This document shows positions 9,899-59,585 of a stretch of DNA of 64,000 nucleotides, piece after piece (position 1 is the first letter of the stretch; each line of letters starts with the position of its first letter). The position numbers were made by a program, and so were the translations under genes. The DNA comes from an uncultured Gammaproteobacteria bacterium (GTDB lineage: Bacteria; Patescibacteriota; Microgenomatia; 2-02-FULL-39-11), in contig CAYGXQ010000004.1 in NCBI GenBank assembly GCA_964354025.1, forward strand, positions 10,239-74,238, written 5' to 3'. Under the pieces are notes generated by a model that made no database searches, was not told the DNA's origin, and was given only the letters and a program-made list of their open reading frames with translations.

Positions 9899-9899
9899 A

Positions 9900-10928: not shown

Positions 10929-10972
10929 AAACGATTAGACTAATTTGGCAAATTTGACTAATTTGGGAAAGA

Positions 10973-11548: not shown

Positions 11549-11555
11549 GTTTAGT

Positions 11556-12108: not shown

Positions 12109-12183
12109 ACAAGGGGATTATAGCATGGATAAGAGGAACGGGATTTGATTTTCCAGGGTAGATAGGATATATAATGGCATTTT

Positions 12184-13257: not shown

Positions 13258-13355
13258 CGATTACTCATTTTGATATCTTGCCAAGGAGAAAATGTTTGTG
13301 GTATAAATTGAGTTTAACAGGAAGATCCTTCGATCCGCCAGCTGGCGGACTCAGG

Positions 13356-17213: not shown

Positions 17214-17362
17214 AAATAAAGTATATATGTGGCATATACATTTGTCAAGGATGGCATAAAAGAATCTATAGCTTTTGTTGGGATTTCTCGTTTGCGCGCA
17301 CTTCAGCCAAAGGCTGATCGTCCTTTGGACGAAAAGTGCGCTAGGCCAAAAATCAAGAGGGA

Positions 17363-19171: not shown

Positions 19172-19376
19172 ATAAAATTTTCGCTAAAGCATTTCCTCGG
19201 AGACGGAATTTCTCCATTGCTTATGTCTTATCTTGTCTTGGTTGTTTTGGGCAAAGTATCCTATCTATACTTGATCGTTCGTCTGATTTGGTATCTCGCA
19301 TTCCGAAATTGTCTCCTTCGGAACTGCTTTTATTAATCTGCGAACATTTTACATGCTTCGCAAAATATTTATTATT

Positions 19377-32854: not shown

Positions 32855-32927
32855 GGGCTCGTAGTTCAACCGGTAGAACATCTCATTTGCAATGAGAAGG
32901 TAGGCGGTTCGAGTCCGCCCGGGTCCA
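32855..32927 (+). tRNA. tRNA-Ala (anticodon UGC)
   Basis: Hand-folded cloverleaf: acceptor GGGCUCG/CGGGUCC with two GU pairs, D-stem GUUC/GAAC, anticodon stem UCUCA/UGAGA with loop UUUGCAA, T-arm GGCGG-UUCGAGU-CCGCC. No encoded CCA. Confidence 0.75.
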
Positions 32928-32932
32928 CTTTT

Positions 32933-32999
32933 TAGCGTCTAGAGGTTAGCGTTTAGCGTTTAGAAAAAACTATACGCTAGACGCTAGTAACTAAACGCT
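32933..32999. repeat. TAGCGTCTAG-unit palindromic element (between tRNA-Ala and 23S)
   Basis: TAGCGTCTAGAGGTTAGCGTTTAGCGTTTAG-AAAAAACTATA-CGCTAGACGCTAGTAACTAAACGCT. The right arm is 22/23 identical to the ruvA-ruvC copy. Confidence 0.65.
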
Positions 33000-33051
33000 G
33001 ATATTGGCTCTTTAAAAAGTGAATAGAATGTAAGTATTGGACACATCTTTA

Positions 33052-36116
<3,065 letters not shown>

Positions 36117-36183
36117 GATGTCAAGGATACTTATTCTATTCACTTTTTAAGGCGCTAAATAAGCACTTTTTACATTCGAATCT

Positions 36184-36299
36184 TTCGGTCTTTTGAGCGG
36201 AGTGGTACTACCTCTTCCCATACCGAACAGAATCGTAAAACGCTCCAGCGCCGACGATAGTTTAGGCGCAAGCCTAAGCGAAAATAGGTCAAGGCCGAA
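36184..36299 (+). rRNA. rrf: 5S ribosomal RNA
   Basis: …GGUACUACCUCUUCCCAUACCGAACAGAAUCGUAAAACGCUCCAGCGCCGA… matches the conserved 5S loop C/helix III regions. The terminal helix pairs UUCGGUC with GGCCGAA. Confidence 0.8.
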
Positions 36300-36367
36300 G
36301 GATTTGAGTGTAAAAAGCATATGCTATAATAAAGCAATCTTACAAAGAAAGGACGGTATGAGAACAA

Positions 36368-44756: not shown

Positions 44757-45092
44757 CTATTTCTCATTCCGGTAATGTGTATGTGTCTTTAACCACTTTT
44801 TACCATAGCGTTCATCACGCATCTTGCGGATAAATTCGGTGGATGATAAACCACCAAAACCATTTTTATTTGATCCCCAAGTCTTCCGCCAGTTTTCAAG
44901 CATTTTTGAAACTCTTTCAAGACGATCTGCATGCTTCTTTTCTTCAATCTCTCTCTTTTTCTCCTCAAAAGGATACATCACCACCACGGGTTCATTTTGT
45001 CTCTCCACGATCATAGGTTCGCCGGTGGCAATCACCCGGTCAATGATTTCCCCGAATTTTTGCCTGAAGGTGAGAGCGCTGACGGTATTCAT
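44757..45092 (-). CDS. Phd/YefM-type antitoxin
   Basis: Start taken at MNTVSALTFRQKFGEIIDRVIATGEPMIVERQNEPVVVMYPFEE (YefM fold). The longer upstream ORF extension is probably not translated. Confidence 0.5.
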   Translation of the reverse strand: MNTVSALTFRQKFGEIIDRVIATGEPMIVERQNEPVVVMYPFEEKKREIEEKKHADRLERVSKMLENWRKTWGSNKNGFGGLSSTEFIRKMRDERYGKKWLKTHTHYRNEK

Positions 45093-45168
45093 TATGATAA
45101 TGATACTATCATATGATATATTATATATCAATTGCTTCCACGGTAACCCTCCACGAGTTTCCGAAAAT

Positions 45169-45272
45169 GTCATTGCGATCCGCCCGCTGGCGGAGAAGCA
45201 ATCCCGTGATGTTACAGTAATTCCTACGGGATCGCCACGGGACGCACCGTCTGGTGCATCCCTCGCGATGAC
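45169..45272. repeat. palindromic ~100-bp dispersed element (GTCATTGCGA…CCGCCCGCTGGCGG…GAAGCAATCCCGT…GGATCGCCACG…CTCGCGATGAC), copy A, intergenic
   Basis: Terminal inverted repeats GTCATTGCGA / TCGCGATGAC and an internal 14-bp palindrome. Shares the GAAGCAATCCCGT and GGATCGCCACG blocks with copies at 46587, 54249, 58407 and 59479. Confidence 0.7.
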
Positions 45273-45347
45273 AAAGTTTTGCCAAATCCTGAACGATTAC
45301 AACCAGACTTGTTTAATCAGGAAGCAGGCATGTTATAATTCTGGAAA

Positions 45348-45915
45348 TATGCGGAAGAAAATCAGGGTTGGTTTTGATTTTGACGGCGTGATTGCCTATA
45401 ACCCATTTCGGGTCTGTCGGGCGCCCCTAACCTTTTTCAAGAAAAGAATATTAGGTGCGCAGAAGTTGAAGTTTTGGTATCCGCGATCCCGCTGGCAGCA
45501 GATTTTTTGGATTATTCTCCATCAGTCAAGTGTCTTTCCGGCCAAAGGGATAAGCCTTTTTAGGGAGATGGTGGAGAAAGAGGTGATTGAAGCCCATATA
45601 ATTACCGGCCGTTACAGTTTCCTGGATGATCATCTGGTCAGATGGTTGGATAAATACAAATTAAAACATCTTTTTAAGACGATCAATGTGAATAAAAAAG
45701 ACGAACAGCCGCACTTGTTTAAGGAAAAAATGCTCAAAGAATATGACTTGCATTACTTCATAGAAGACAATCTGGATATTGTGACTTACCTTCACGGCCG
45801 ACAACGGACGAAGATCTACTGGATCTATAACCTGATCGACAGAAAACATCCGCATCCGTATAAATCACCGCATCTGGAACACGCGCTGAAAGAGATTGCG
45901 AAAAAAATAAAATGA
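45348..45915 (+). CDS. HAD-like hydrolase (tentative)
   Basis: MRKKIRVGFDFDGVIAYNP has a DxDGV motif I of HAD phosphatases. It lies in the 3' part of a longer ORF whose 5' part covers a palindromic repeat. Confidence 0.35.
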
Positions 45916-47114
45916 AAGTTCTTTTTTCCATCACCTACTACACTCCTTATGTCTCCGGATTGACTCTGTATGTCAAAAGGCTGGCTGAGGCGTTGGCAGA
46001 AAAGAGTAATCAGGTATCAGTGATCAGCTTTCAGCATGAAGAGGGATTGCCTTCTGAAGAGAAGATAAATAATATCAGGGTAGTGCGGGTTAAGCCGCTT
46101 TTTAAGATAAGTAAAGGTTTTGTTTCTCTTGGTTGGTTGACGAAGTGCTTCCGCGAGGTGAGGAAACATGAGACGGTGATTATTAATCTGCCGCAGTTTG
46201 AAGGCGTTACTGCGGCACTACTTGGAAAAATCTTCGGCAAAAAAGTCATATCCGTCTATCACTGTGAAGTGGTTTTACCCCGGGGATTTTCCAACCGGAT
46301 CATCAATTGGCTGTTAAACCGGTCAAATAAGATTTCCCTTGCTTTATCGGACACGGTTGTCACTTATACCGAGGACTTTGCCAGTCATTCAAAAATATTA
46401 CTGCCGTATCTCAAAAAAACCAAGTATGTTTATCCACCTATACCTTTGCCAAAGATTGATAAAAGAGTACAAAAAATGATCATGGAGAAAATCGGAAAAA
46501 CAGACTATGTCATCGGCGTGGCCGCGAGGTTAGCGGCGGAAAAGGGAATAGAGTATTTGCTTGAGGCTATACCACTAATACAAAATGTCATTGCGAGGAA
46601 CGAAGCGACGAAGCAATCCCGTGGGGGATCGTCACGCCCCGCCATGGCGGGGCTCGCGATGACATACTCGCCTTTTAAAATTATCATTGCCGGCTCTTTA
46701 GATCCAGTCGGTGAAACAAGTTATAAAAAGAAAATATTACAATTAGTTGAGAAATATAGAGACTACATCATCTTCTTAGGAGAGTTGAAGGAAGAGGAGA
46801 TGGGAGCTTTTTATTCTTTGCTTGATGTCTTGGTGTTGCCGTCCATTAATTCCACCGAGGCTTTCGGCATGGTGCAGGTGGAAGCAATGATGATGGGCGT
46901 GCCGGTGGTGGCAACTAATCTTCCGGGAGTCAGGGTACCGATCCAAAAAACAGGGATGGGGACGGTTGTGCCCGTCAAAAACAGCCAAAAACTGGCGGAA
47001 GCGATTGTAGAAGTCTTAAAAAACAAAAAAGAATATCTTAAAGACAAAGAGATTGTAAAGAGAGAATTTTTGTTTTCTAAGACGGTTGATTTTTACGGTC
47101 AATTATTGACTTGA
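45912..47114 (+). CDS. GT4-family glycosyltransferase (with in-frame repeat-element insertion)
   Basis: The C-terminal VLPSINSTEAFGMVQVEAMMMGVPVVATNLPG matches the GT4 EX7E region. Residues ~227-252 (VIARNEATKQSRGGSSRPAMAGLAMT) are encoded by a 77-bp palindromic element. Confidence 0.75.
   Translation: MKVLFSITYYTPYVSGLTLYVKRLAEALAEKSNQVSVISFQHEEGLPSEEKINNIRVVRVKPLFKISKGFVSLGWLTKCFREVRKHETVIINLPQFEGVTAALLGKIFGKKVISVYHCEVVLPRGFSNRIINWLLNRSNKISLALSDTVVTYTEDFASHSKILLPYLKKTKYVYPPIPLPKIDKRVQKMIMEKIGKTDYVIGVAARLAAEKGIEYLLEAIPLIQNVIARNEATKQSRGGSSRPAMAGLAMTYSPFKIIIAGSLDPVGETSYKKKILQLVEKYRDYIIFLGELKEEEMGAFYSLLDVLVLPSINSTEAFGMVQVEAMMMGVPVVATNLPGVRVPIQKTGMGTVVPVKNSQKLAEAIVEVLKNKKEYLKDKEIVKREFLFSKTVDFYGQLLT
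46587..46663. repeat. palindromic dispersed element, copy B (77 bp), in-frame inside the GT4 CDS
   Basis: GTCATTGCGAGGAACGAAGCGACGAAGCAATCCCGTGGGGGATCGTCACGCCCCGCCATGGCGGGGCTCGCGATGAC. Confidence 0.7.
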
Positions 47115-47155
47115 TATATTTTTTGGTTATTGACAATAACCAAAAATAGAATATA

Positions 47156-48556
47156 ATGGTTAATATGATTAACCAAATTCCGGAAAGCACCAAAAGATTC
47201 CTGAGTTTGCAGAATCCGTGGTTTTCCGCGCCGGTTGAGATTATCAAGGAGGATGAAAAGCTTAAAGAGCTGGACAGTCAGCATTTCCAATGGCAGCCGG
47301 AAATTCTGGATGAAATTTCATACCAGCCGGGCGTGTTTGTTCTGCGCGGTCCCCGCCAGGTAGGCAAAACTACTGTTGTCAAATTATTGATTAAAAAGTT
47401 ATTGCTTGAAAAAAAAGTACCTCCAAGTTCTGTTTTTTATTATTCCTGCGAGGATCTGCAGAATTTTCAGGATTTAAACAACCTGATTTTCAGTTTTTTT
47501 GATCTGGCCGGTTCATTGCCGGCGGGTAAAAGATATATTTTTCTGGATGAGATTTCCTTTGTCAGGGAATGGCAAAGAAGCATTAAGTCATTCGTGGAAA
47601 GCGCGGGGGGGAAGAATATTTTTTTCTTTTTAACAGGTTCTTCTACTATTGACCTTGAATTTTCAGGTGAAAGATTACCGGGCAGGAGGGGAGCCTACAC
47701 CAGAGATTATTTATTTTTACCCCTGACTTTTGGAGAATTTGTGAAATTAACCTCACCGGAACTGTTTCCACCCGAAGAAAAGAAACAATTATTGATTTTG
47801 CCGAAATTGCGCGCCAAACTTCATCAATATCTTCTGACCGGCGGTTTTCCGAAAGCGATCAACAATTACTTCAAAAACAGAAACATTTCGCAGTCTATTT
47901 ATGAACTTTATATTTCCTGGGTGTTGGGCGATATCCATAAATTGAATAAATCGGATAAGTTTTTAAATAATTTACTGGCCGTATTGCAAAAACATGAGTC
48001 TTCGACGTTTTCGTACCAGTCTTTAGCCAGAGAAAGCGGCATTATTTCCCATCTGACGGTCCAGGATTATTTGGCGGTATTAGAAAAAATGTTTGTCCTT
48101 TTTCCGATTGACGCTTTTTCCATTGCCGAGAAAAAACCGTCTTATAAAAAAAATCATAAGAATTATTTTTATGATCCTTTCATCAAAAATTGCCTGAATG
48201 CCAGCGCCTTTGGTTTAACGGAGAATATCGCCAACTATATTAATGATCAAAAAGAAGAAGAGGATTACTGGTCAAAAAACGCGGAGAATTTGGTCGCTTC
48301 GCACCTTAAACGGGACAGTGCCCAATTATACTGGGGATCAATAGGCGAGAGGGAAGTGGATTTCGTCGTTTTCAAAGACGGAAGTTACAGTTATTTTGAG
48401 GTTAAACAGAGCGCGAGAGTCGAATTTGAAGATTTTTCATATTTTTTCACCGCGATGCCAAACAGCCGCCTGACAGTGATTTCCAAGAATGACTTTTGGG
48501 AAAAGAAAAATCTGAAAGTTATCCCTTTGGAACTGTTTCTTCTGAAAAAATTTTAA
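47156..48556 (+). CDS. COG1373-type AAA+ ATPase (second paralog)
   Basis: GPRQVGKTTV Walker A, then YIFLDEISF. Same architecture as the gene at 40806-41939. Confidence 0.65.
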   Translation: MVNMINQIPESTKRFLSLQNPWFSAPVEIIKEDEKLKELDSQHFQWQPEILDEISYQPGVFVLRGPRQVGKTTVVKLLIKKLLLEKKVPPSSVFYYSCEDLQNFQDLNNLIFSFFDLAGSLPAGKRYIFLDEISFVREWQRSIKSFVESAGGKNIFFFLTGSSTIDLEFSGERLPGRRGAYTRDYLFLPLTFGEFVKLTSPELFPPEEKKQLLILPKLRAKLHQYLLTGGFPKAINNYFKNRNISQSIYELYISWVLGDIHKLNKSDKFLNNLLAVLQKHESSTFSYQSLARESGIISHLTVQDYLAVLEKMFVLFPIDAFSIAEKKPSYKKNHKNYFYDPFIKNCLNASAFGLTENIANYINDQKEEEDYWSKNAENLVASHLKRDSAQLYWGSIGEREVDFVVFKDGSYSYFEVKQSARVEFEDFSYFFTAMPNSRLTVISKNDFWEKKNLKVIPLELFLLKKF

Positions 48557-48747
48557 GATAATTTTATGCAAGTAAGCTACGAGAGTAATCGTCCTGTTAA
48601 AATCAAACGAATTTGGTATTATCTGCAGTAAAAATATTGCAAGCGGCAAATTTTAAGATAAAAATCAAACCACGCAAAGAAGTAAACAATCTCGGATTAC
48701 TCTATGCGGTAAGATCAGATAAATAACAACTGGTATATTATTTTTCA

Positions 48748-49545
48748 ATGAAAAATATAGAGTACTTTTTTAAAGAATATTTCAAAAACAGGCCTCTTTT
48801 TCTCTCTTTGATCCGTGCTAAAGAGGCGTTTTTATATCAGAAATATTTGCCATTTAAAAGCCCAATTCTGGATATAGGTTGTGGCGACGGGTTCTTCGCA
48901 AAAACTGTATTAGGTCAGCAATGGAGCAAGGGAATAATTGCTGTAGGTTTGGATATTGCCGATAGCCGGATAGAGGAGGCGAGGGGTTTAGGAATGTATA
49001 AGAAACTGGTTATCTATGATGGTTTGAAGATGCCTTTTGCGAATAGATCCTTTAATACGGTCGTTTCCAATTGCGTGTTGGAACATATACCCGATTTGGA
49101 CGGGACTTTAAAAGAAATTTACAGAGTACTTAAACCCGGAGGACTGTTTATCACCACAGTCATGGCCAAACCATGGGAAGAAAATTTATTTGGAAGCATG
49201 ATCTTGGGTAAATGGTATAAGGATTGGATGAGAAAAAAACAGGTTCATCTTAACCTCTTTACAAGACAAAGTTGGGATCAGGCGTTCAGGCGAGCAGGAT
49301 TTAGAATTAGTTCTACGGTTGGTTATCTTTCCCCATCAGCCTGTAAATTAATTGATCTGTGTCATTATTTATCGTTGCCGAGCCTGATTACATATAAAAT
49401 ATCCGGTAAGTGGGTATTATGGCCAAAAATCAGTGAAAAGATCTACCCGATTGATTATTTAGTGAAAATTATTAACGAGAAAGTCAATACTGATAAATCA
49501 GGAGCCATATTTTATGTCTTAAATAAAAAAAATGTTAAACAATAA
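48748..49545 (+). CDS. class I SAM-dependent methyltransferase
   Basis: ILDIGCGDGFF (motif I) and VVSNCVLEHIPD (motif II/III), Methyltransf_11-like. Confidence 0.7.
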   Translation: MKNIEYFFKEYFKNRPLFLSLIRAKEAFLYQKYLPFKSPILDIGCGDGFFAKTVLGQQWSKGIIAVGLDIADSRIEEARGLGMYKKLVIYDGLKMPFANRSFNTVVSNCVLEHIPDLDGTLKEIYRVLKPGGLFITTVMAKPWEENLFGSMILGKWYKDWMRKKQVHLNLFTRQSWDQAFRRAGFRISSTVGYLSPSACKLIDLCHYLSLPSLITYKISGKWVLWPKISEKIYPIDYLVKIINEKVNTDKSGAIFYVLNKKNVKQ

Positions 49546-49684
49546 ATAAGAGCTTTTTATAGCTAGTCCTAGTCTTTTGGAATCATGGAGAAAATGAAAG
49601 GAAATCTGTCTTATACAAGAGTGAAATAATTTTATTATCCTTCAAGAACTATTGCTTTTCGGGCAGTGGAATATCAATAAAGCC

Positions 49685-51355
49685 TTAATTGGCAAACAAA
49701 CTATAACCTTTTGAAATATTGATTATCTTGCCGTTCGGATCCAGCTGTTGGAATTTATCGTTAAAATCTTCAGGAAAGATGATCGCGTAAACATATTTTT
49801 CATTAGGATTAAAAGTAGTTATAAACCCGTCATGATAGCCTGTGGTAATAGACTTAGCATTTTTTCCCTGTGAAAAATAATAGACTTTATCAAAGCCAAA
49901 TCCGGGATACGCAGCCACATAAATATGTCTTCCAGGGAAGTTTTTATTTATATAGTCGGAGATCATAACGCTTTCATTATAGCTTTCTTTTTCTACTGAT
50001 TTTAGGAAATATTTTTCATTATTGAAACAATAAATTAATAGAAAAATGATGATTAAGCCATATCCCAGAATTTTAAAATTCTTAGTCAGTTTAAAAAGGG
50101 TAGCAAACGGCAGAGCGCAGATAACAGATATAAAAGGGAAAGCCAAAGTTAACCGGTGATAGCCGGGGGGTGGAACGGCTAAGATCACTGTCGCAAGGGA
50201 AAGAAAAATGGTTAAAAACAAGACAAAAATAATCAGATTGTTGAAAAGCATGGTTGAGCCGATGAGCAAACCCAATATAAAGAGAATAAGCGTGAATTTA
50301 TCAAAAATCGCCTGATGGGCAAAGTCAAATCCGCCTGCGCCCCCGATATCGTTTTGATAGAAGGATTTTAAGGTATTCAGGGCGTTTTCTTTCAGGGGTA
50401 TCAGCGGACTTTCGCCTTTTTGGATTCGTTCCCGGGCTCCCGACCAGGATCCGGTTAGAAGAGAGACTTGGTTGGTGCGGGAAGTGAAATAATTATCGAA
50501 ACGGAAGGCGTAAGTTAAAAACGGACCTAAAACCACCAAAAAACCAATTAAGGCCCAAGCAAAATTTTTTATAACAGTTGATTTCTTATATTTCAAAAAC
50601 TGAAAAAAATAGACGATTGCCATTACCGGTAAAGCGATAAATGAAGTCATATAAAATAAATAACAAAAACCACAGGAAATTCCTGTCAGAACCGAGGAGA
50701 AATCGTTTCTTTTGCCTATTCCGTAAATCAAGGCGGCAATAAAGAGACAATAAATTGCAGTCCCGCTGATAAAAATCAATCCTAAAGTATCGAAGTACAA
50801 ACTGATGGCTAAAAACCCATAAAGGATTACGGCGATTAAAGCTATTTTCTTCGGGATGGATTTACCGGCAATATAAAAAAGGGCCGCGGAAACGATCAAT
50901 ATATAAGGTATAACCGACAATTTAACCGTAAGCAGATTTTCCCCAAAGATTAGAAAAAAGAATTTTTGCAACGCAAAAAACGGAGCAGGAAATTGAGATT
51001 GCCATTGAGTCTTATCACTGGGAATCCCGGAGAAAAAGATTATTTTTGAGAAATTTTCGGTGGCGGAAAAATAAGCGGTAAGCATGTCATCTCCATGGAT
51101 CCGGTTCAGATTGAAATTGACGATACGGACAATAGATGGCAGGAGAATAATCAGGAAAATAAGCAAATATTTTTTATTCACAAACCCGGATGGCAGTTTT
51201 AACGCATTTTTCTTACCGGTTAGAACACCCAGCGGTAAAATAACAATGGAGAGAATCCACCAGTATATTAAAACAGGAGAATATTTGCCGGTACTGACAG
51301 CAAAACTTATGCAGAGAGTAATAATAATTGATAACAGATAGATGATTATTTTCAT
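49685..51355 (-). CDS. GT-C-fold polytopic membrane protein (PMT/ArnT-like glycosyltransferase), paralog A
   Basis: 556 aa, ~12 TM, a periplasmic-loop RIHGDD motif and a C-terminal soluble domain. It has a tandem duplicate whose 3' ~270 bp are near-identical. Confidence 0.45.
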   Translation of the reverse strand: MKIIIYLLSIIITLCISFAVSTGKYSPVLIYWWILSIVILPLGVLTGKKNALKLPSGFVNKKYLLIFLIILLPSIVRIVNFNLNRIHGDDMLTAYFSATENFSKIIFFSGIPSDKTQWQSQFPAPFFALQKFFFLIFGENLLTVKLSVIPYILIVSAALFYIAGKSIPKKIALIAVILYGFLAISLYFDTLGLIFISGTAIYCLFIAALIYGIGKRNDFSSVLTGISCGFCYLFYMTSFIALPVMAIVYFFQFLKYKKSTVIKNFAWALIGFLVVLGPFLTYAFRFDNYFTSRTNQVSLLTGSWSGARERIQKGESPLIPLKENALNTLKSFYQNDIGGAGGFDFAHQAIFDKFTLILFILGLLIGSTMLFNNLIIFVLFLTIFLSLATVILAVPPPGYHRLTLAFPFISVICALPFATLFKLTKNFKILGYGLIIIFLLIYCFNNEKYFLKSVEKESYNESVMISDYINKNFPGRHIYVAAYPGFGFDKVYYFSQGKNAKSITTGYHDGFITTFNPNEKYVYAIIFPEDFNDKFQQLDPNGKIINISKGYSLFAN

Positions 51356-51368
51356 TTATGAGATACTA

Positions 51369-53036
51369 TTAATTCACGAACAAACTATAACCTTTTGAGA
51401 TATTGATTATTTTGCCGTTTGGATCCAGCTGTTGGAATTTATCGTTAAAATCTTCAGGAAAGATGATCGCGTAAACATATTTTTCATTAGGATTAAAAGT
51501 AGTTATAAACCCGTCATGATAGCCTGTGGTAATAGACTTAGCATTTTTTCCCTGTGAAAAATAATAGACTTTATCAAAGCCAAATCCGGGATAGGAGGCC
51601 ACATAGATATTTCTGCCGGGGAAGTTTTTATTGATATAGTCGGAGATCCTCAGACTTTCATGATATTCTTCACCTTTTATTGATTTCAAAAAATACTGCT
51701 GATTAAAGTACATATAGATAAATATAAAGATCACACAAACGATGTATCTTATTAGTCTATTTGTCTTATTGAGTGACAGCAAAATATAGAAGGGAATCGA
51801 AAGGATCATGGATAAGAATGGGAAAGATAGGGAAAGCCGGTGGTAGGCCGGTGGAGGAGTGGAGAAGACCATCGCGCTAAAACAAAAAAGAATAGTCAGA
51901 TAAATAAAAAGTACTTCGAAATTGGTAAAGATGAGAAATATTCCGATTATTGCTCCAGCAATAAATAGGTATAGAGAATATTTTTCAAAAAAAGCCAGAT
52001 GGCCGAAGTCATAGCCGCCGTGACCGCCAATACCATCTTGATAAAATGATTTGAGAGAAATAGTTAAACTTTCCTTAATTTCGTTGAGAGTACTGCTTTC
52101 ACCGCGGGCGATTTTATCTTTGATACCAGACCAGGAGCCGGAAAGTAGAGAGACTTGACTGGTGCGGGAAAAGAAATAATTATTGTATTTCAAAGCATAA
52201 GTAAGATAAGGCGACAGAACAATGAGGAAAGTCACGATGGCCAGGCCGAAATTTCCTATCACGGACAGTTTTCTCACGTTAATCAGTTGAAGAAAATACA
52301 AAATCAGCATCAGGGGAAAAGCGATAAAAGAAGTGTTATAAAAAAGATAACAAAAGCCGCAAAATAGTCCCGTCAACACGGAATAAACCGGTCTGTTTTT
52401 TTTCCACTGAAGAATCGCAAAGTAGAAGAAAATCATAAATGGTGCCGTACTGCTGACAAAATGCAATCCTAAAGTTTCATGGTACAGACTGATTGGTAGG
52501 AAAGCGTAAAGAATAACCGTGATGATAGCGGTTTTAGCATTAAAGATTTCCCGTATAATCAGAAATAGCATGAGGGAGATAATCAGTACATACGGGATTA
52601 CCGATAATTTTACGCTCAAGACGCCTTCTCCGAAACAAAGGAAAAATATTTTTTGCAGGGCAAAAAACATCGTCGGAAATTGGGCAACCCATTGTCCTTT
52701 ATCTGAAGGAATGCCTGAGAAAAAGTTTATTTTTGCGAAATTTTCGGTGGCGGAAAAATAAGCGGTGATAAGATCATCTCCATGGATACGACTGAGATTA
52801 TAGTTGGTTATCCTGATAATTGAAGGCAACAGAATTGCCAGGATAATGATGAGATTTTTTATCGAAAAGCGGATTTTGATATGGAAACTTTTTTTCTGAT
52901 ACAAAACCGAAGCAAGGATGAAAATGATTGACAATATCCACCAATAAATAAGAACCGGAGTATATTGATTCCGGAAAACCATCAGGTTGATATAAATACT
53001 GATTAGGATGGAAATAAAGAAAAAAATAATTTGCAT
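51369..53036 (-). CDS. GT-C-fold polytopic membrane protein, paralog B
   Basis: 555 aa, collinear with 49685-51355. Same RIHGDD motif and an identical C-terminal 85 aa. Confidence 0.45.
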   Translation of the reverse strand: MQIIFFFISILISIYINLMVFRNQYTPVLIYWWILSIIFILASVLYQKKSFHIKIRFSIKNLIIILAILLPSIIRITNYNLSRIHGDDLITAYFSATENFAKINFFSGIPSDKGQWVAQFPTMFFALQKIFFLCFGEGVLSVKLSVIPYVLIISLMLFLIIREIFNAKTAIITVILYAFLPISLYHETLGLHFVSSTAPFMIFFYFAILQWKKNRPVYSVLTGLFCGFCYLFYNTSFIAFPLMLILYFLQLINVRKLSVIGNFGLAIVTFLIVLSPYLTYALKYNNYFFSRTSQVSLLSGSWSGIKDKIARGESSTLNEIKESLTISLKSFYQDGIGGHGGYDFGHLAFFEKYSLYLFIAGAIIGIFLIFTNFEVLFIYLTILFCFSAMVFSTPPPAYHRLSLSFPFLSMILSIPFYILLSLNKTNRLIRYIVCVIFIFIYMYFNQQYFLKSIKGEEYHESLRISDYINKNFPGRNIYVASYPGFGFDKVYYFSQGKNAKSITTGYHDGFITTFNPNEKYVYAIIFPEDFNDKFQQLDPNGKIINISKGYSLFVN

Positions 53037-53517
53037 GAAATCAGTTGAATTTATTAATTAACAGCATCTTAATTGTCCTCTAGGAGTTTCTGACTATTAA
53101 TATTAGATTAATATAAAAATCCAAATAAATAAAGGGGGATGGTTTTTTATTCCCGATGAGGATACCTTATCAATATGGTCAGGAATGGGGATAGTCTATT
53201 CCTATTTTCCAGACATTCTTTTCTAAAAAAGCCTCGATAGTTTGTCTGTTTGCTTTATTGATAAGGTTTGAATGAGAAAGTTTACTGGTTTTTGCGTAGT
53301 CGGCAAGAGTAATAATCCTTTTGCCTTCCAAATATGCTAATCGCTTATGATAGCTATTGGTAAGCGCTTTTCCTACTATTTCTTCCATAACGGCAGATAT
53401 ACCTTTCTTCACGATTTTGTCAATATAACCGTGAAAAATAGGTATAATTTGTTACTTATTCACGATTTTGGCTATAATTCTCTTAATATTTACTAAAAAA
53501 GTTTGACTCCAGTCAAG

Positions 53518-54222
53518 TTATTTATGCCTGATCAGCGTCTTTACCGCTCCCCAGGCATCTCTGACGGTCAGTTTTTTGCCGGACAGATGGGAGCGGCCCC
53601 GGTATGAAATGGGGACTTCCACGATCGGGACTTTTGCCTTGACCAATTTTGCGGTGATTTCCGGTTCGATTTCAAACCGGTTTCCGGTGAGGTGAACTTT
53701 TTTCAAAAAAGACGAAGGTAATAGTTTATACCCGGTTTCCATGTCGGTAAGTTTGGTTTGGTAAAACAAATTTGTCAAAAAAGTCAGCAGTTTATTACCC
53801 CAAAGGTAAAGTCGGGGTATGACGGCATTGTTACTTAGAAAACGGGAGCCGTAGACGGCAATATTAGTCTTTAGTCGTTGGTCTTTAGTCTTTGGCGATA
53901 ATATTGGTTTTAAGAGCTGGGGAATTTCGTCAGGGTTGTATTCCAGATCGGCGTCCTGGATAAGGATATAGTCGCCGCTGGCCGCTTTTATCCCGGTTCG
54001 CACAGCCGTTCCCTTTCCCCGATTTTTCTTATGAGTAATGATCTTTAAATTCTTAATTCTTAATTCATAATTCTTAATTCTATTTCCCGTTCCGTCGGTT
54101 GATCCGTCATCCACCACAATAATTTCTTTCCGGCAGGGGAGTTTGACCCGGGAAACCTTATCCAAAACGGTAGAGATGGTTTTCTCTTCGTTGTAAACGG
54201 GAATAATGATTGACAGTTTCAT
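53518..54222 (-). CDS. GT2-family polyprenyl-phosphate sugar synthase (DPM1-like)
   Basis: IIIPVYNEE…VVDDGSTDGT…IQDADL (DxD) of GT2/GT-A. Contains in-frame taattct and tagtctt repeat tracts. Confidence 0.75.
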   Translation of the reverse strand: MKLSIIIPVYNEEKTISTVLDKVSRVKLPCRKEIIVVDDGSTDGTGNRIKNYELRIKNLKIITHKKNRGKGTAVRTGIKAASGDYILIQDADLEYNPDEIPQLLKPILSPKTKDQRLKTNIAVYGSRFLSNNAVIPRLYLWGNKLLTFLTNLFYQTKLTDMETGYKLLPSSFLKKVHLTGNRFEIEPEITAKLVKAKVPIVEVPISYRGRSHLSGKKLTVRDAWGAVKTLIRHK

Positions 54223-54248
54223 AATATTTAAGAGCCTGTTTGAGAAGC

Positions 54249-54346
54249 GTCATTGCGAGGCCGCAGCCGAAGCAATCCCGTGATACTATAGTAATTCCAA
54301 CAGGATCGCCACGTTCTCCGCCAGCTGGCGGATCGCTCGCGATGAC
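54249..54346. repeat. palindromic dispersed element, copy C, intergenic
   Basis: GTCATTGCGAGGCCGCAGCCGAAGCAATCCCGTGATACTATAGTAATTCCAACAGGATCGCCACGTTCTCCGCCAGCTGGCGGATCGCTCGCGATGAC. Confidence 0.7.
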
Positions 54347-54413
54347 ATTTTTTTGACTTTTCAAACAGGTTCTAACGCGATATTTTTGATATTTGCACTT
54401 TGATTTTGAAGTG

Positions 54414-56348
54414 TCATAAAGTAACAGAAAGAACTTTAAGATAATCTATAGTCTTGACCTTTTTGAAGATAATTACCTTCGGGTGGTCGTAGACGGTAAA
54501 AGTCTCATCAGCATAATCATCCACAAAACTGATGCCTGTTTGGTTGCATTCCTGCGTTTTCAGAGCTACTATTCCGTATCTGACGAAGGGAGGGGTAAGA
54601 CATAATTTAATTCCAGGTATGGGCAGATTCGGGCGGGAAGTAAATTCAGCCACTTTTTCAAAGCCCAAAGATCCATCAAATAACGCATTGTAATATTTAA
54701 TGGTAATCGGATATTTCTGGGGATAGGTCATGGTGGATCCATAAAGCCGGTTGCTGGTTAAGATCACGTAATCGGTTTTTTCCAAATCAGCGGAGATTTT
54801 TCTCCATTTTTCTTCGTTATCCGGCCAGTACAAGGGAAACTGCACTTTTTGATATTGTTCATGGATGTAATTTCCAAGACTCACGGGGAGGCCGTCGTCC
54901 CATTCTTCGCTTGAGACGGTTACGCCTGCCGGTAAGTTTTTGAATATCCAATATGAAGCCTCTACTCTTGAATTTAATCTTGAATAAATCGTAACAAAGG
55001 ATAGGGGATATACAATTATTAATAACCCAATTACCAAATAACCCAATAATCCAATTTTATATTTATTGATGATTCGGACAACAAAATATCCGGAAAGAAT
55101 AGCTAGAAAAGGATAGATCGGGAAGAAATATCGGAGAGCCTTGACGAATTGCCCGCCTTGGTAAATGAATAATATGAGGATCCAAAGAGTCGATAAAAAG
55201 AGTATAAAGTGGGAAGTATTAAGTATTTGGGATAATTTTTTCTTCTGAAATAGTAAACGTATTATACATAATACTTGATACATAATACTTAATACCGCGA
55301 GTATTCCCAGAGGTATTCCTAAGCCCCAAAACAACATATTTTTCAAAGGAAAAAGGTAAGGTTTAGTGGTAATCCATTGAACCGCGGGAGGGAATCCGCC
55401 GGTTGTATCGTCAAAAGATTTTAGCTCTTTCCAATTTTGCAGAATTTTTGGGTTTAAAGAGAAAGTGATCAGAGCAGAGTTGGAGAAAAGATACGGTTGA
55501 GCCAGACGGACGGTGAAATAGGAAGAAACAAAGAACATAAAACATATAACAAAAAACAAAAAAAGATTTCTATTCTTAATCAAAAAGAATAATAGACTCA
55601 GTCCGATGATTGGGAGAAATAAGACGGCGGTGATTTTCGAGGCAATGGCCAGACCAAACGCAATTCCCAGGAGAGTTGTAAGTTTTAAGTTGCAGGTTAT
55701 AAGTTTATTACCTTTTTGAGTGTTAGAGATTATTTTGATGAGAAGATAAAAAGATAGAGCGATGAAAAAAGTCAGATAGGTTTCCACGGCGAAGAAATGG
55801 GAGAGTTGGATAGGAAGGACCGACGCCGCATAGAAGAACATCGCCAATAATGGAAAAATCCAATTTTTTGGTAATGTCATTCCGAGTCCGCCAGCTGGCG
55901 GATCCGAGGAATCTTCCAACGATGGAAGATCCCTCCACGCGTCCCGATCTGATCGGGACTTGGTCGGGATGACGCTTTTTGCGATGAGCAAAACGAGAAT
56001 CACCGTTCCCAGATCGAAAAAGCCTGAAAGCGACCTTCCGATAAGCGTCAGGTTTCCGTAATCTCCTTTCCCAAGGCCTTCAGCCACCCATTTGGTGAAA
56101 AAGATGGGGAAGGTGCCGTAGACGAAAAAGCCGTAGCCGCGGTTATGAGGATTGAGGGGAGAAGTGGCAGTATCAAGATATTCCGTCAGATTCTTTGGCC
56201 AGGCGATACCGTTGGCCACCATGGTCAAAAACCTTTCGTCAGGATGAAGGTGCTGGTCCTGGTCCCAGTTGACGCCGTAGAGGCGGAAGAATGAGGCTAA
56301 AAATAAAATTCCTAAAGCTACTATTATTATTTTATATTTTTCTCTCAT
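54414..56348 (-). CDS. GT-C-fold membrane glycosyltransferase-like protein (with in-frame repeat-element insertion)
   Basis: 644 aa, polytopic, with an N-terminal loop HLHPDERF. It shares a C-terminal …LGFEKVAEF…TFTVYDHP… with 56363-58375. Residues SRSDRDAWRDLPSLEDSSDPPAGGLGMT are encoded by a 98-bp palindromic element. Confidence 0.45.
   Translation of the reverse strand: MREKYKIIIVALGILFLASFFRLYGVNWDQDQHLHPDERFLTMVANGIAWPKNLTEYLDTATSPLNPHNRGYGFFVYGTFPIFFTKWVAEGLGKGDYGNLTLIGRSLSGFFDLGTVILVLLIAKSVIPTKSRSDRDAWRDLPSLEDSSDPPAGGLGMTLPKNWIFPLLAMFFYAASVLPIQLSHFFAVETYLTFFIALSFYLLIKIISNTQKGNKLITCNLKLTTLLGIAFGLAIASKITAVLFLPIIGLSLLFFLIKNRNLFLFFVICFMFFVSSYFTVRLAQPYLFSNSALITFSLNPKILQNWKELKSFDDTTGGFPPAVQWITTKPYLFPLKNMLFWGLGIPLGILAVLSIMYQVLCIIRLLFQKKKLSQILNTSHFILFLSTLWILILFIYQGGQFVKALRYFFPIYPFLAILSGYFVVRIINKYKIGLLGYLVIGLLIIVYPLSFVTIYSRLNSRVEASYWIFKNLPAGVTVSSEEWDDGLPVSLGNYIHEQYQKVQFPLYWPDNEEKWRKISADLEKTDYVILTSNRLYGSTMTYPQKYPITIKYYNALFDGSLGFEKVAEFTSRPNLPIPGIKLCLTPPFVRYGIVALKTQECNQTGISFVDDYADETFTVYDHPKVIIFKKVKTIDYLKVLSVTL
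55876..55973. repeat. palindromic dispersed element, copy D (variant), in-frame inside the GT-C CDS 54414-56348
   Basis: GTCATTCCGAGTCCGCCAGCTGGCGGATCCGAGGAATCTTCCAACGATGGAAGATCCCTCCACGCGTCCCGATCTGATCGGGACTTGGTCGGGATGAC. Confidence 0.6.
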
Positions 56349-56362
56349 ACTTTATCAGTTTA

Positions 56363-58375
56363 TCATTTTACAAAGAGGAGTCTATATTCTTCCGCCGTCA
56401 TAGGCTTGACTTTCTTATAGATCCTAATCACCGGATGATCAAAGACGGTATACGTCTCCTCAGCCTGTTCATCCGGAAGCGTCCAGCGTAAAGCGTTAAG
56501 CGTTAAGCTGGGGAAAGAACTGAACTCGGCCACTTTTTCAAACCCTAGGTTACCGGAGAAAAGAAGCCGGTAATATTTGGCTAAGCGGGGATATTTGGTC
56601 AGAATCTTCGGATGATTGGCAAAAAGCCGGCGGGAGGGGATGAAAATATAATCGGCTTTCTCCAGATGGGTGAAAAGCTGGTCAAAAATCGCCGGATTTT
56701 CGTCCATATGATAAAAATCAAAAGAGATGACCGGTACATTATTCCATTTTTCCGAAAGTGGTCGGTCCGGATCATCATTAAGAAGACCAAGAGGGATATC
56801 CACAACGTTTGCTGTTTCAGAAAGGACATAGGAATTACCGGGAATATTTCTATAGATCCAGCGGGAGGCAGTCAACCGGCTGTCTTCGCTGGCATAGATA
56901 GACATGAAAGCGACCCCTGGTAAAAAGCTCAAAAAGCAAAACGCAAAGATCAAAAATTTAATAAGTGGTCGGGATGATAGGAACTGATAGAATTTATACA
57001 AGAGATACCCTGCAAAAATATAGAAGAAAGCAAATATCGGTGTCATGAATCTGGTCCATTTGGCGAAAAGAAAAGCGTTGGGGATAAAGTAAATTAAAAA
57101 TGAAACCGTTATGATAAATAATAATAGAAACTCGTTCCGTTTCGTATTCTTTGTATAATTTGAAATTTGAGTTTTGAAATTTTTATTAAATTTGAAAATT
57201 TTTAATTTGAATTTTGATTGAAAATTGAAAATTGAAAATTGAAATTTTTTTCCTAGATCAATAATAAAAATAACAACTGTAATTAGAAACCCAAGGGAAC
57301 CAAGAATAAATACCGGCCATCCAAGCGTATATGGAAATACCTTTTGTGCCTGAAAGACAATCGGGACGGTATTGACAAACTGCCTGGTATAAAAAGCTTC
57401 GTACCGGCCGGTGGCCACATCGCTTTCGTAGCCGAAGACCGCGCTTTTGAAGCTTTCTTTTTCCACCAGATTATACGGAGAGGAAACGGCGGTGAAGAAG
57501 AGGGAACCGGCAAGTAATAATAATCCAATAATCAAATAAACCCCTGCCTGCCGGCAGGCAGGCAATAACCCAATCAGCCAATTTTTCCTCTTTTTTTTAA
57601 AAAATATAAATAATTGCATCATAATTGCCAAACCGGGCGGGACGAAAAAGAATAAACCGGTGAATTTGGAGCCGAAAGCCAGGCCGATGGTTAAAGATAA
57701 AAGTATTAAGTATTTAGTATTAAGTATTAGGTATTTTCGGAAAGATTTTTTAAGTGGATTTTCTAATAATTTCATTGAAAGATATATAGAGGAGAGGAAG
57801 AAGTAAGAGAGTAAAGATTCGGTGGTGCCGAAGTGGGCCGCCTGGATGAGTCCCGGAGAAAAAGAACTGGCAAGGGCGGCTAAGAGGCCAAATTTGAGAC
57901 CCGTCAATTTCCTGGTAATCAGATAAACGAGATAAACGGAAGCAACCGAAGAGAAGGCTGACCAGAAACGCAGCCAAAAGATGGCCGCCGGGAAATTGGT
58001 GGCAAAAGCTTCACGGTCATCCATTATTTGAGCTGAATAAATGTTGAAAACAGGTTTTGTCACCTGGTTGGAAAGATAGGCCAGATAGAGAGGGAATTGG
58101 CCGTAGGCGAAAAAATGGGGATTAAGGCTGCATAAATTAGCGTCTAGCGGATAGCGTTTAGCGTCTAGCTGGTAAGGAAAGAATTGAGATTTTAGACAAG
58201 TGGAGATAGAGGATAGATTTTTGGGAAGGCGAAACTGCATGATTGCACCGGCCATATTGCGTTCGTCTGGGTCAAAAAAATACGGATAATCGCGCATCAG
58301 GTTATAGAAGCGGAGAAAGCAGGAAATAATTATAATAGCTATTAAAAATAGTTTTATTTTCTTTAATATTTTCAT
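56363..58375 (-). CDS. GT-C-fold membrane glycosyltransferase-like protein (paralog)
   Basis: 670 aa with an FFDPDERN loop motif and C-terminal NLGFEKVAEFSSFP…ETYTVFDHP paralogous to 54414-56348. Contains in-frame simple repeats (gaaaatt x n; taagtatt x n) and an in-frame TAGCGTCTAG element. Confidence 0.45.
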   Translation of the reverse strand: MKILKKIKLFLIAIIIISCFLRFYNLMRDYPYFFDPDERNMAGAIMQFRLPKNLSSISTCLKSQFFPYQLDAKRYPLDANLCSLNPHFFAYGQFPLYLAYLSNQVTKPVFNIYSAQIMDDREAFATNFPAAIFWLRFWSAFSSVASVYLVYLITRKLTGLKFGLLAALASSFSPGLIQAAHFGTTESLLSYFFLSSIYLSMKLLENPLKKSFRKYLILNTKYLILLSLTIGLAFGSKFTGLFFFVPPGLAIMMQLFIFFKKKRKNWLIGLLPACRQAGVYLIIGLLLLAGSLFFTAVSSPYNLVEKESFKSAVFGYESDVATGRYEAFYTRQFVNTVPIVFQAQKVFPYTLGWPVFILGSLGFLITVVIFIIDLGKKFQFSIFNFQSKFKLKIFKFNKNFKTQISNYTKNTKRNEFLLLFIITVSFLIYFIPNAFLFAKWTRFMTPIFAFFYIFAGYLLYKFYQFLSSRPLIKFLIFAFCFLSFLPGVAFMSIYASEDSRLTASRWIYRNIPGNSYVLSETANVVDIPLGLLNDDPDRPLSEKWNNVPVISFDFYHMDENPAIFDQLFTHLEKADYIFIPSRRLFANHPKILTKYPRLAKYYRLLFSGNLGFEKVAEFSSFPSLTLNALRWTLPDEQAEETYTVFDHPVIRIYKKVKPMTAEEYRLLFVK

Positions 58376-58406
58376 TAAAATTAAAACATGACTTACGTAA
58401 TTTTAT

Positions 58407-58505
58407 GTCATTGCGAGGCTAAGAGCCGAAGCAATCCCGTTGGGCAAACTGGTATCCTACGGGATCGCCACGCTCTCCGCCAGCTGGCGGATCGCTCGCG
58501 ATGAC
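58407..58505. repeat. palindromic dispersed element, copy E, intergenic
   Basis: GTCATTGCGAGGCTAAGAGCCGAAGCAATCCCGTTGGGCAAACTGGTATCCTACGGGATCGCCACGCTCTCCGCCAGCTGGCGGATCGCTCGCGATGAC. Roughly 90% identical to copy C in the outer blocks. Confidence 0.7.
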
Positions 58506-58517
58506 AAATAACCAATT

Positions 58518-59438
58518 TCAGAGGACATATAGGATGGTAATGATTATTACTCCCCAACAACCCATGGAAACAATTAAAGGAATATCAGTTGTCACGATCT
58601 TTTCCGGTTGTTCCGCATCGGCTCCGCTGTAGGCCAGTTGGGCGTAGCGCATGAGGATGTAGATGATAAAAGGGATAGTGATTATCATCCATTTCCGATC
58701 CACTGCTTGAGGCATGACGGTTATCAGGAAATCTTTGACGGGTGTATTGAATTGCGGCGGCTCCTCAAGAAAAGCAAAAAGTGAATAAGCGATGATCGAA
58801 GCTGATCCGAACATGGAAGTATAAAAATCCAAAAGCCTTTCCTGATACTGGAAGAGAGCCGGTCTGGTTTTTGAGCCTTCCCGCAGCAGTTCGGCGTGCC
58901 TTTTTGTGGCGGCAATAAAGATAGCGATAAAAATAATGGTCAAAGACAGCCAGAAGGGGAGGTGGAAGCCGGTCAGGATTTCGCCGGCAAAAGCCCTAAG
59001 CGTGAAAGAGAAAGAGATGCTTAAGATATCCAAAATAGCGTATTTTTTGAAAACCAGCGAATAGAGAACATGGAGAAGGATAAAGGAAAAAGCAATCATA
59101 AAAAAACCGGGCGAAATAAGGATTGCGGAAAGCAGGGCAAAAAGGGCTAAAAGGAAGGCAATTTCAACAGCCGTGTTCAAAGGCAAGTCGCCTGAGGCAA
59201 GCGGCCTTTTTTTCTTGAGGGGGTGAAGCCGGTCGTATTTTAAGTCGATAATGTCGTTGAAAAGATACGAGGATGAAGAAAGGGCGCAAAAGATAAAAAA
59301 TCCGGATAAGGTATGCAATAGATAAGGACCGTCAAAAATTTTGCCGTTGAAGATTATTGCCGCAAAAAGGATCAGGTTCTTGATCCACTGGTTTGGCCGC
59401 AAAGCTTTGAATAAAATCCGCCAGTTTAACAAATTCAT
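58518..59438 (-). CDS. UbiA-family prenyltransferase (decaprenyl-phosphate phosphoribosyltransferase-like)
   Basis: NDIIDLKYDRLHPLKKKRPLASG matches the NDxxDxxxD UbiA motif and resembles the DPPR-synthase subfamily. ~8 TM. Confidence 0.7.
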   Translation of the reverse strand: MNLLNWRILFKALRPNQWIKNLILFAAIIFNGKIFDGPYLLHTLSGFFIFCALSSSSYLFNDIIDLKYDRLHPLKKKRPLASGDLPLNTAVEIAFLLALFALLSAILISPGFFMIAFSFILLHVLYSLVFKKYAILDILSISFSFTLRAFAGEILTGFHLPFWLSLTIIFIAIFIAATKRHAELLREGSKTRPALFQYQERLLDFYTSMFGSASIIAYSLFAFLEEPPQFNTPVKDFLITVMPQAVDRKWMIITIPFIIYILMRYAQLAYSGADAEQPEKIVTTDIPLIVSMGCWGVIIITILYVL

Positions 59439-59478
59439 ATTAGTTTAGTAGTTATGCAATGAATGTTGATTTAGATTT

Positions 59479-59517
59479 GTCATTGCGATCCGCCGGCTGG
59501 CGGAGAAGCAATCCCGT
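59479..59517. repeat. palindromic dispersed element, copy F (truncated 5' half)
   Basis: GTCATTGCGATCCGCCGGCTGGCGGAGAAGCAATCCCGT, then unrelated sequence. Confidence 0.5.
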
Positions 59518-59585
59518 CCGAGATTGCCTAAGCCCTGTCAGTTCTTATTTTAAGTGACGGTCATTTGAATATCAACCTGGATTAG

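Follow-up and report, generated by a model that had tools for sequence, protein, structure and literature searches.

A palindromic element in frame within a glycosyltransferase gene

The stretch of DNA analysed here (the window, 64,000 nts of contig CAYGXQ010000004.1) contains, in its 45-60 kb region, an envelope-glycosylation cluster with genes annotated as DUF2298, GT4, methyltransferase, PMT_2, GT2, PMT, UbiA and amine oxidase; no other part of the window is as rich in A/T. The GT4 gene of this cluster encodes a family 4 glycosyltransferase of the GT-B fold, and its open reading frame (ORF) is crossed in frame by a palindromic element (Table 1). This segment is very probably a copy of a non-autonomous, multi-copy palindromic element that is carried as a tolerated passenger by a functional GT4 enzyme.

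The host protein has the Glycos_transf_1 C-terminal domain and the Glyco_transf_4 N-terminal domain expected of a GT4, with Pfam matches to PF00534 (7.9e-29, residues 193-375) and PF13439 (2.3e-10, residues 15-162) and further matches to PF13692 and PF13579. An AlphaFold2 model shows the two beta/alpha/beta domains of a GT-B enzyme (mean predicted local distance difference test score, pLDDT, of 94.5; predicted template modelling score of 0.91), for which the nearest solved structures found by Foldseek are MshA, BshA, PimA and similar enzymes, with E-values down to 1e-19. In a search of 5.8 billion protein clusters, the exact protein had one match, in a single-member cluster.

The element itself (GTCATTGCGAGGAACGAAGCGACGAAGCAATCCCGTGGGGGATCGTCACGCCCCGCCATGGCGGGGCTCGCGATGAC) is translated as VIARNEATKQSRGGSSRPAMAGLAMT, residues 226-251 of the protein, in exact agreement with the original prediction, made from the DNA letters, that the GT4 ORF stays open across a 77-78 bp element. 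Its terminal inverted repeats of 13 nts (ATGTCATTGCGAG / CTCGCGATGACAT) are 92% complementary, and it has an internal 9+9 palindrome without mismatch (GCCCCGCCA/TGGCGGGGC). The element region is predicted to fold as RNA at -44.2 kcal/mol (z = -5.0), a stability reached by none of 200 shuffled sequences, and the insert-bearing stretch has a GC content of 52% vs 41% in its flanks. No intrinsic terminator was detected by scan at the in-gene copy, which is not followed by a T-run. A promoter-like match at 46659-46687 (ATGACA, 17 nts, TATCAT; 10 of 12 positions), whose -35 box is the right end of the element, points downstream; it is a bare consensus match.

Three of the six frames of the element are open, and the in-gene copy is read in its frame 0 (GTC ATT ... 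ATG ACn), the peptide starting with VI and ending with MT. This frame bypasses the TGA within ATGAC and is, on each strand, the commonest open frame across the element family. Both in-gene copies of the window use it, and their lengths of 77 and 98 nts make, with a flanking purine, 78 and 99 nts, hence whole codons.

Table 1. Coordinates of the GT4 gene, the palindromic elements and the recurrent 14-bp palindrome (positions in the window)
Feature	Position	Strand	Description
GT4 (GT-B fold) glycosyltransferase gene, host of the element	45912..47114	+	400 aa, ORF intact
In-frame palindromic element	46587..46664	+	77 nts from GTCAT to ATGAC plus one flanking A, 26 codons
Left terminal repeat GTCATTGCGAG	46587..46597	+	
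Right terminal repeat CTCGCGATGAC	46653..46663	+	
Internal perfect palindrome GCCCCGCCATGGCGGGGC	46636..46653	+	hairpin module of the right half-unit
Intergenic copy	45169..45272	+	104 nts; flanked by a PIN/antitoxin pair and by the next gene upstream of GT4
Intergenic copy	54249..54346	+	98 nts; between a GT2 gene and the gene of a 644-aa membrane protein
Intergenic copy	58407..58505	+	99 nts; between a PMT-family gene and a UbiA gene
Solo left half-unit (GTCATTGCGAT..GAAGCAATCCCGT)	59479..59518	+	intergenic
Variant-family element GTCATTCCGAG...TCGGGATGAC	55876..55973	-	98 nts, in frame in ORF 54414..56348(-)
14-bp palindrome CCGCCAGCTGGCGG	441, 13335, 33798, 45180, 54318, 55888, 58477, 59490, 60399		nine occurrences

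Copies of the element in the window

The terminal 11-mer of the element, with one mismatch allowed, occurs 11 times in the window vs 0.72 expected, a number that no shuffled sequence equalled. These matches pair into four complete copies, which align with 51 invariant columns and of which the in-gene copy is the shortest. The copies have a common core (GTCATTGCGA...GAAGCAATCCCGT...GGGATCGCCACG...CTCGCGATGAC), and the hairpin modules between these blocks differ from copy to copy. Together with the variant-family element, the window holds five full copies (four of the family and one variant) and a half-unit. All six GTCAT...ATGAC elements lie within 45169-59518, that is, within the glycosylation cluster, and none was found in the other 45 kb.

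Two of the intergenic copies stand in a particular context. The copy at 54249-54346 is nested in a 9-bp inverted repeat (CCTGTTTGA / TCAAACAGG, 54235-54369), an arrangement that would result from insertion into the loop of a pre-existing hairpin. The ATG of the minus-strand ORF 44757-45173 is supplied by the reverse complement of an element end (GTCAT), and the plus-strand TTG ORF 44824-45915 reads across the intergenic copy; in both cases the repeat has probably led to a gene call that is too long.

Comparison with orthologs

The closest orthologs of the host protein (P0002-P0004; 372-373 aa, 82-84% identical over the alignment) are named Candidatus Microgenomates, and farther homologs are named Candidatus Gottesmanbacteria. 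The DNA of two of these orthologs (L001 for P0002, L002 for P0004) aligns to the window with one clean gap of 81-84 nts exactly at the element, both flanks aligning well, and gene order and reading frame are colinear on either side. The linker at the insertion site reads LLKDKC in the orthologs vs LIQN-[26 aa]-YSPF in the window. A repeated palindrome is present both in intergenic DNA and in frame within ORFs, and is absent from orthologs. On these comparative grounds the segment is a true insertion of a repeated palindromic element and not a native linker, as had been anticipated when an in-frame, Rickettsia-like palindromic insertion was first proposed here; the ortholog gap and the intergenic copies bear this out. 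It had been reasoned that the same segment, shared at the protein level by orthologs across the lineage, would point to a native linker; L001 and L002 lack the segment while conserving its flanks.

That the segment might be a lineage-specific, low-complexity linker of a GT4 subfamily rather than mobile DNA is nevertheless suggested by the linker itself, which is hypervariable in length in the family and, among 120 homologs, has a baseline of 6-20 aa and is often lysine-rich and repetitive. This explanation is vanishingly improbable: besides being missing from 82-84% identical orthologs and similar at the nucleotide level to the intergenic copies of the window (51 invariant columns), two facts by which it is already refuted, the segment has terminal inverted repeats, a fold z of -5 and a GC content of 52% vs 41%.

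Repeats can also mis-join assemblies, and the source of the window is a metagenome-assembled contig, so that a repeat chimera might be considered; alternatively, the element could be removed from the mRNA and never be translated. Both are very unlikely in view of the colinearity with orthologs on both sides and of analogous in-frame inserts in independent NCBI, ENA, JGI and Logan assemblies. As to removal from the RNA, no known ribozyme or intron family of Rfam matched, and a steady in-frame, stop-free reading is what translation, not splicing, predicts.

Recurrent insertions in GT4 homologs and in neighbouring genes

About a third of the 120 homologs have inserts of up to 67 aa at the same linker, with unrelated sequences (for example SRAKSRDLSRMRARTSREIP, SGERSDSRITSNENDSGQARMT, CHAELVSTSYSKGIPKQVRDD, HPGLRAGIQGKKQWIPGQARNDK, AIKTPRGWPAYKDSP, VPASAAPPAKPMAMHGKARAGRQ and HPPAGG). 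In about 10 homologs there are also inserts at a second loop, which immediately precedes the first strand of the C-terminal domain. When 115 homologs were aligned, inserts of at least 8 aa were counted in 32 at the first loop, in nine at the second and in at most three at any other position.

The DNA of eleven insert-bearing homolog genes was examined, and every insert checked (L004, L005, L083 at both sites, L084, L085, L086, L087, L210, L211 and L212) corresponds to a significant hairpin or palindromic element; several families are represented, in both orientations. Six of them are GTCAT...ATGAC elements of different subfamilies (L005, both loops of L083, L085, L087 and L210), the one in L087, an ortholog with only ~50% identity, belonging to the window's own family in the opposite orientation. 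Other palindromes occupy the GT4 loops of L004 and L086 (CACCTC-GG...CC-GAGGTG type) and of L211, while the insert of L212 is the short ATCCGCCAGCCGGCGGAT and site 1 of L084 holds a mixed-hairpin insert. The insertion points vary by a few codons among genes, which indicates independent events. Once in place, inserts can evidently persist and decay without killing the gene, since P0016 and P0020 share the insert SRAKSRDLS, of which P0024 and P0034 look like in-frame deletion remnants. In the KTPRGWPAYKDSP group, the insert is likewise shared and diverged within a clade.

Other genes of the cluster have been hit. The variant element of the window lies in frame in the gene of the 644-aa membrane protein, where it encodes VIPTKSRSDRDAWRDLPSLEDSSDPPAGGLGMT (33 aa, residues 126-158), a segment lacking in 13 orthologs; this protein is orthologous to PMT/PMT_2-annotated genes adjoining GT4 in related loci. 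On the 171-kb contig L083, six GTCAT...ATGAC elements occur within 12 kb (8008-19569), all of them in frame in Pfam-supported genes, namely DUF2298, GT4 (twice), GT2 and PMT (twice).

Position in the fold and state of the enzyme

In the structural model, the N-terminal domain ends at ~172 and is followed by an interdomain helix (184-194) and by the first strand (199-204), first helix (213-237) and second strand (255-260) of the C-terminal domain. The insert (226-251) is thus placed, by the model and by the Pfam span 193-375, inside the C-terminal domain, in the connection from its first helix to its second strand, and not between the N- and C-terminal Rossmann halves, where the original prediction had put it. 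That prediction was right in locating the insert upstream of the EX7E motif, E316-AFGMVQV-E324 (TEAFGMVQVEAM), which is intact.

A surface loop had been suspected, and the model agrees in part: helix 220-237 continues into the insert, whose residues 231-240 are modelled as an extension of helix 1 (pLDDT 84), and only residues 241-250 form a floppy loop (pLDDT 57), the rest of the fold being confident. The position therefore appears, as modelled, to be compatible with the fold. In Rossmann folds, ligands are bound at the C-terminal ends of the strands, and the helix-to-strand loops lie at the opposite edge. From this topology, the insert should face away from the nucleotide-sugar cleft and probably points away from the active site.

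Whether the enzyme tolerates the insert or is inactivated by it had been left undecided. Inactivation would make the gene a young pseudogene, its ORF still open because the insertion is recent. A 26-aa insertion within a Rossmann domain could indeed disturb folding, the exact allele comes from a single contig, and with three of six frames of the element open, a random in-frame and stop-free hit is not negligible. This explanation is improbable, as the columns that are invariant in 37 or in 115 homologs are all present in the window protein, near-invariant family residues and EX7E are kept, and the model retains a confident GT-B fold around the insert. The ratio of nonsynonymous to synonymous substitution rates (dN/dS) between the window gene and the two insert-free orthologs is 0.138 and 0.168, below the 0.228 found between those two orthologs, values that average the whole divergence (dS ~0.63) and cannot isolate the time since insertion. 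Inserts at the same loop in 32 of 115 full-length homologs, some of them shared and diverged in clades, also argue against a pseudogene. Tolerance of a loop insertion is therefore favoured over inactivation, given the intact ORF, the retained invariant residues, the dN/dS of 0.14-0.17 (vs 0.23 for the insert-free pair) and the dozens of full-length homologs with analogous inserts.

Anatomy, mobility and spread of the element

The element consists of two inverted half-units, GTCAT-TGCGAG-[hairpin]-GAA-GCAATCC and GGATCGC-CAC-[hairpin]-CTCGCG-ATGAC, separated by a spacer. The plan common to the families comprises, on the left, GTCAT-xxx-GAG/GG, a hairpin A and a central arm reverse-complementary to the left end, followed by a loop and, on the right, by a central arm in the other sense, a hairpin B and CTC/CC-xxx-ATGAC. 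The ends are YGTCAT...ATGACR and the length is ~62-138 nts. Each half can fold on itself, as in the doublets formed by repetitive extragenic palindromic sequences (REPs) and known as REPINs; the alternative is a cloverleaf-like structure with an outer stem and three hairpins. Pairing within each half is supported by covariation among non-redundant copies, in which the variable base of the right end (CTCGC[A/G]ATGAC) changes with the right central arm (GGAT[T/C]GC), the combinations being A-T in 23 copies, G-C in nine, A-C in two and G-T in none. The solo half-unit at 59479-59518 also fits the doublet model.

Among 122 non-redundant elements, flanking direct repeats of 2-5 nts, as a target-site duplication would leave, occur at chance level. 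The flanking bases are strongly biased, with a pyrimidine before the element (-1; 84 with T, 27 with C) and a purine after it (+1; 76 with A, 31 with G). A TA-duplicating (Tc1/IS630-like) mechanism was rejected, as T is preferred only at -1 and A only at +1 rather than TA on both sides. The element is not a classical MITE (a miniature transposable element with inverted repeats) of the DDE type. The lack of a target-site duplication and the hairpins kept by covariation point to an enzyme that acts in trans and recognises structure, not to a DDE transposase; a guess is that a hairpin-recognising enzyme of the HUH/RAYT type (RAYT, REP-associated tyrosine transposase) or of the IS200/IS605 type mobilises the element.

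An nhmmer search with the four window copies returned almost nothing from related genomes, where the termini and the architecture are conserved and the internal modules are not. The pattern GTCATTGCGA-N8-30-GAAGCAATCCCGT was found in at least 120 metagenome stretches, on contigs of 33-74% GC. Among the matches listed, 86 were complete copies, 68 of them intergenic and ~18 in long stop-free frames, such as an 836-aa ORF in L108 and a 1283-aa ORF in L155. Peptides translated from such elements ('...ATKQS...', '...ARNDK') are probably widespread among hypothetical proteins from many phyla. Chloroflexota loci also have related elements, and one of these loci (L060) contains four GTCATTGCGAG...CTCGCAATGAC elements in tandem (4565-4888, period ~84 bp) and two more 14 kb away (18883-19076). 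Complete copies of the family are also found on two IMG/VR (predicted viral) contigs, at 7885-7973 and 11586-11675 of L088 and at 308-394 of L089, which could reflect a route of spread between hosts or a misclassification of the contigs.

No Rfam family matched the element at the gathering threshold anywhere in the window, so that a known RNA family was rejected. At E <= 1, no match was obtained for the 58407 copy, and the in-gene copy gave two far sub-threshold matches to RsmY (13.8 and 11.9 bits vs a gathering score of 57; E 0.14 and 0.46).

The insert might instead have been exapted, its peptide, its mRNA or DNA hairpin or its promoter-like end having acquired a selected role, for example in translation or mRNA stability of the glycosylation cluster or in diversifying envelope-glycosylation enzymes, with the hot spots as targeted or selected variation. 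Such a role would accord with the confinement of all six window elements to the 45-60 kb cluster, with the six elements of L083 in four genes of the same cluster, with the promoter-like ATGACA-17-TATCAT at the right end and with the RNA hairpin of -44 kcal/mol. It is hardly probable, however, considering that the family is mostly intergenic in metagenomes (the 68 of 86 complete copies among the matches listed above), that the clustering statistic is post hoc and concerns the most A/T-rich part of the window, and that the promoter is a bare consensus match. The inserts at the GT4 site are moreover unrelated in peptide, length and orientation, which speaks against a selected peptide function.

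Relation to known palindromic repeats

Rickettsia palindromic elements (RPEs) are in-frame, translated palindromic repeats compatible with the fold of their host proteins (Ogata et al. 2000, 2002, reviewed in PMC10969869). Like them, the elements described here are short multi-copy palindromes that lie in frame in unrelated housekeeping genes and are translated at apparently fold-compatible positions; several families coexist, and intergenic DNA and RNA genes contain copies as well. They differ from RPEs in their host, a member of the candidate phyla radiation (CPR; Microgenomates) instead of an alphaproteobacterium, in their length (~62-138 nts vs ~100-150 bp), in their YGTCAT...ATGACR ends and two-hairpin doublet, and in their occurrence on contigs of 33-74% GC instead of in one genus. 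For the Microgenomates elements, it is documented that a single loop of one orthologous protein was hit repeatedly and independently. The likeness to RPEs thus appears to be one of phenomenon, and membership in RPE-1 to RPE-10 is not claimed because host phylum, length and termini differ.

REP superfamilies are recognised by GTAG/CGTC tags (PMC3733652). With REPINs, the element shares an inverted doublet of imperfect palindromes with a spacer, the lack of target-site duplication, a modular mosaic structure, solo half-units and covariation. Its ends are YGTCAT instead, the GTAG/CGTC tag was not found, and the 64-kb window has no RAYT gene. REPs are also extragenic by definition, whereas a sizeable fraction of the GTCAT...ATGAC copies lies in genes, and the half-units described here are longer than typical REPs of 20-40 bp.

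As in MITEs, the element is small (77-104 nts), non-autonomous, non-coding and multi-copy, with terminal inverted repeats (11-13 nts), an occasional in-frame fusion to ORFs and promoter-like ends. Classical MITEs duplicate their target site, such as QMITE1 and QMITE2 of Coxiella, with duplications of 2-3 and 7-11 nts, respectively (PMC5896051), whereas GTCAT...ATGAC elements do not; moreover, no parent insertion sequence with matching ends was found in ~1.4 Mb of related loci, a small part of each genome. ERIC and BOX elements located within genes are further examples of MITEs with in-frame insertions (PMC10969869).

Palindromes in coding regions are also known from the mitochondria of Nematomorpha, where they form perfect long hairpins of up to 284 bp (PMC6649704). 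They too are long inverted repeats translated within conserved protein genes, but they are organellar and eukaryotic, and show no sign of belonging to a dispersed mobile family that also occurs in intergenic DNA. In a literature search of incomplete coverage, no report of coding palindromes in CPR/Patescibacteria was found, and searches with the terminal sequences of the element returned only unrelated primer matches.

Proposed origin of the insert and its implications

The element inserted among the A/T-rich linker codons of a GT4 gene that was functional, after this lineage had diverged from its nearest sampled relatives. The copy adds whole codons and is read in the TGA-avoiding frame, hence translated as 26 extra residues. 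As modelled, these lengthen helix 1 of the C-terminal domain and continue into a flexible loop, and the enzyme would stay active. Such an insertion would be a near-neutral passenger, and both loops may be permissive sites where in-frame hits survive purifying selection, a survival that is probably helped by a preference for A/T-rich, pyrimidine|purine (Y|R) junctions. The HUH/RAYT or IS200/IS605-type enzyme suggested above would supply the mobility in trans.

Several observations weigh against this account. No transposase, RAYT or nuclease domain was detected by Pfam in the 40 ORFs of the window, and in ~1.4 Mb of related loci no pair of matching ends 0.4-4 kb apart encloses a gene, as expected of an autonomous element; the search recovered only neighbouring small elements. 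Copies within ORFs are more readily detected if they are in-frame survivors. The junction is blurred by about two extra codons beside the element in the window (YSPF vs KC in L001), so that the exact inserted length (77, 78 or 79 nts) and the ancestral linker are uncertain. As for the protein, the helix predicted within the insert is a single-sequence signal, its distance from the active site is derived from fold topology rather than from model coordinates, and the activity of the insert-bearing enzyme is deduced from sequence.

Selfish DNA that is read in frame as part of proteins has mostly been regarded as a peculiarity of Rickettsia, a view that the Microgenomates case widens; a 2024 review of MITEs only speculates on similar protein evolution outside Rickettsia (PMC10969869). 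What is new here is that two loops of one enzyme family have been colonised repeatedly and independently, together with the breadth of the superfamily. A single orthologous loop, struck by different elements on at least nine separate occasions, constitutes a natural experiment, which shows where a protein tolerates insertions and how peptides are gained from selfish DNA. For annotation, VIARNEATKQS..., ...GQARNDK and ...PPAGG... in CPR proteins are to be read as translated repeats and not as domains, and element ends account for some ORF starts and extensions. The family is very widespread, with conserved ends and structure and no known transposase, and is now defined well enough for a search for its enzyme.

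A broader and more tentative idea is that the GTCAT...ATGAC elements form a single, previously undescribed, cross-phylum and REPIN-like superfamily (CPR, Chloroflexota, hosts of 33-74% GC) which is moved, without duplicating its target, by a structure-specific enzyme and systematically colonises permissive surface loops of Microgenomates envelope-glycosylation proteins (GT4, GT2, PMT-like and DUF2298). If so, it would be a major recurrent source of protein length variation in reduced Microgenomates genomes. The superfamily may even have a real target preference for glycosylation clusters, beyond the survival of random hits.

Further repeats in the window

The 14-bp palindrome CCGCCAGCTGGCGG occurs nine times in the window vs 0.05 expected. 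It is solitary at 441 and 13335 and also serves as a module of the larger elements. The occurrence at 33798 lies inside the 23S rRNA gene, in which a hairpin loop carries a 15-nt insertion according to the Rfam alignment, and that at 60399 lies inside the amine-oxidase ORF, with the peptide GPPAGGF. The palindrome is also present in the GT4 linker of the homolog P0048 (L212).

The 23S rRNA gene has 3049 nts vs 2925 in the model. Together with the genes of tRNA-Ala and the 5S rRNA, it occupies 32855-36300, and the window as a whole has no 16S rRNA gene that could be found. Immediately upstream is a thioredoxin/DsbA-like gene, hence the 16S rRNA gene is either not linked or no less than 32 kb distant.

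Another family of repeats, made up of TAGCGTCTAG, is present in eight copies in the window vs 0.03 expected. Palindromic clusters of these copies occupy the ruvA/ruvC spacer and the tRNA-Ala/23S spacer (11555-11626 and 32933-32986), and two direct copies lie in frame in the 670-aa PMT-family ORF (58138-58168, peptide LDAKRYPLDA).

The pyruvate phosphate dikinase (PPDK) ORF at 13278-16145 encodes 955 aa with stretched or split Pfam matches, PPDK_N being matched in two stretches and 291 profile positions of PEP-utilizers_C being spread over 356 residues, a hint that there may be more insertions. A hairpin at 13689-13744 of this gene was considered as one such insert and rejected, since it encodes PGMMETVLNVGL, which we take to be a native PPDK motif.

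Finally, the GT2 ORF 53518-54222 (-) encodes, at ~54040-54085, the low-complexity peptide RIKNYELRIKN, and the GT4 linkers of several homologs consist of the near-identical peptides IKNYELRKK and IKNYELRIKK, which suggests that another short DNA repeat is translated in GT2 and GT4 genes.

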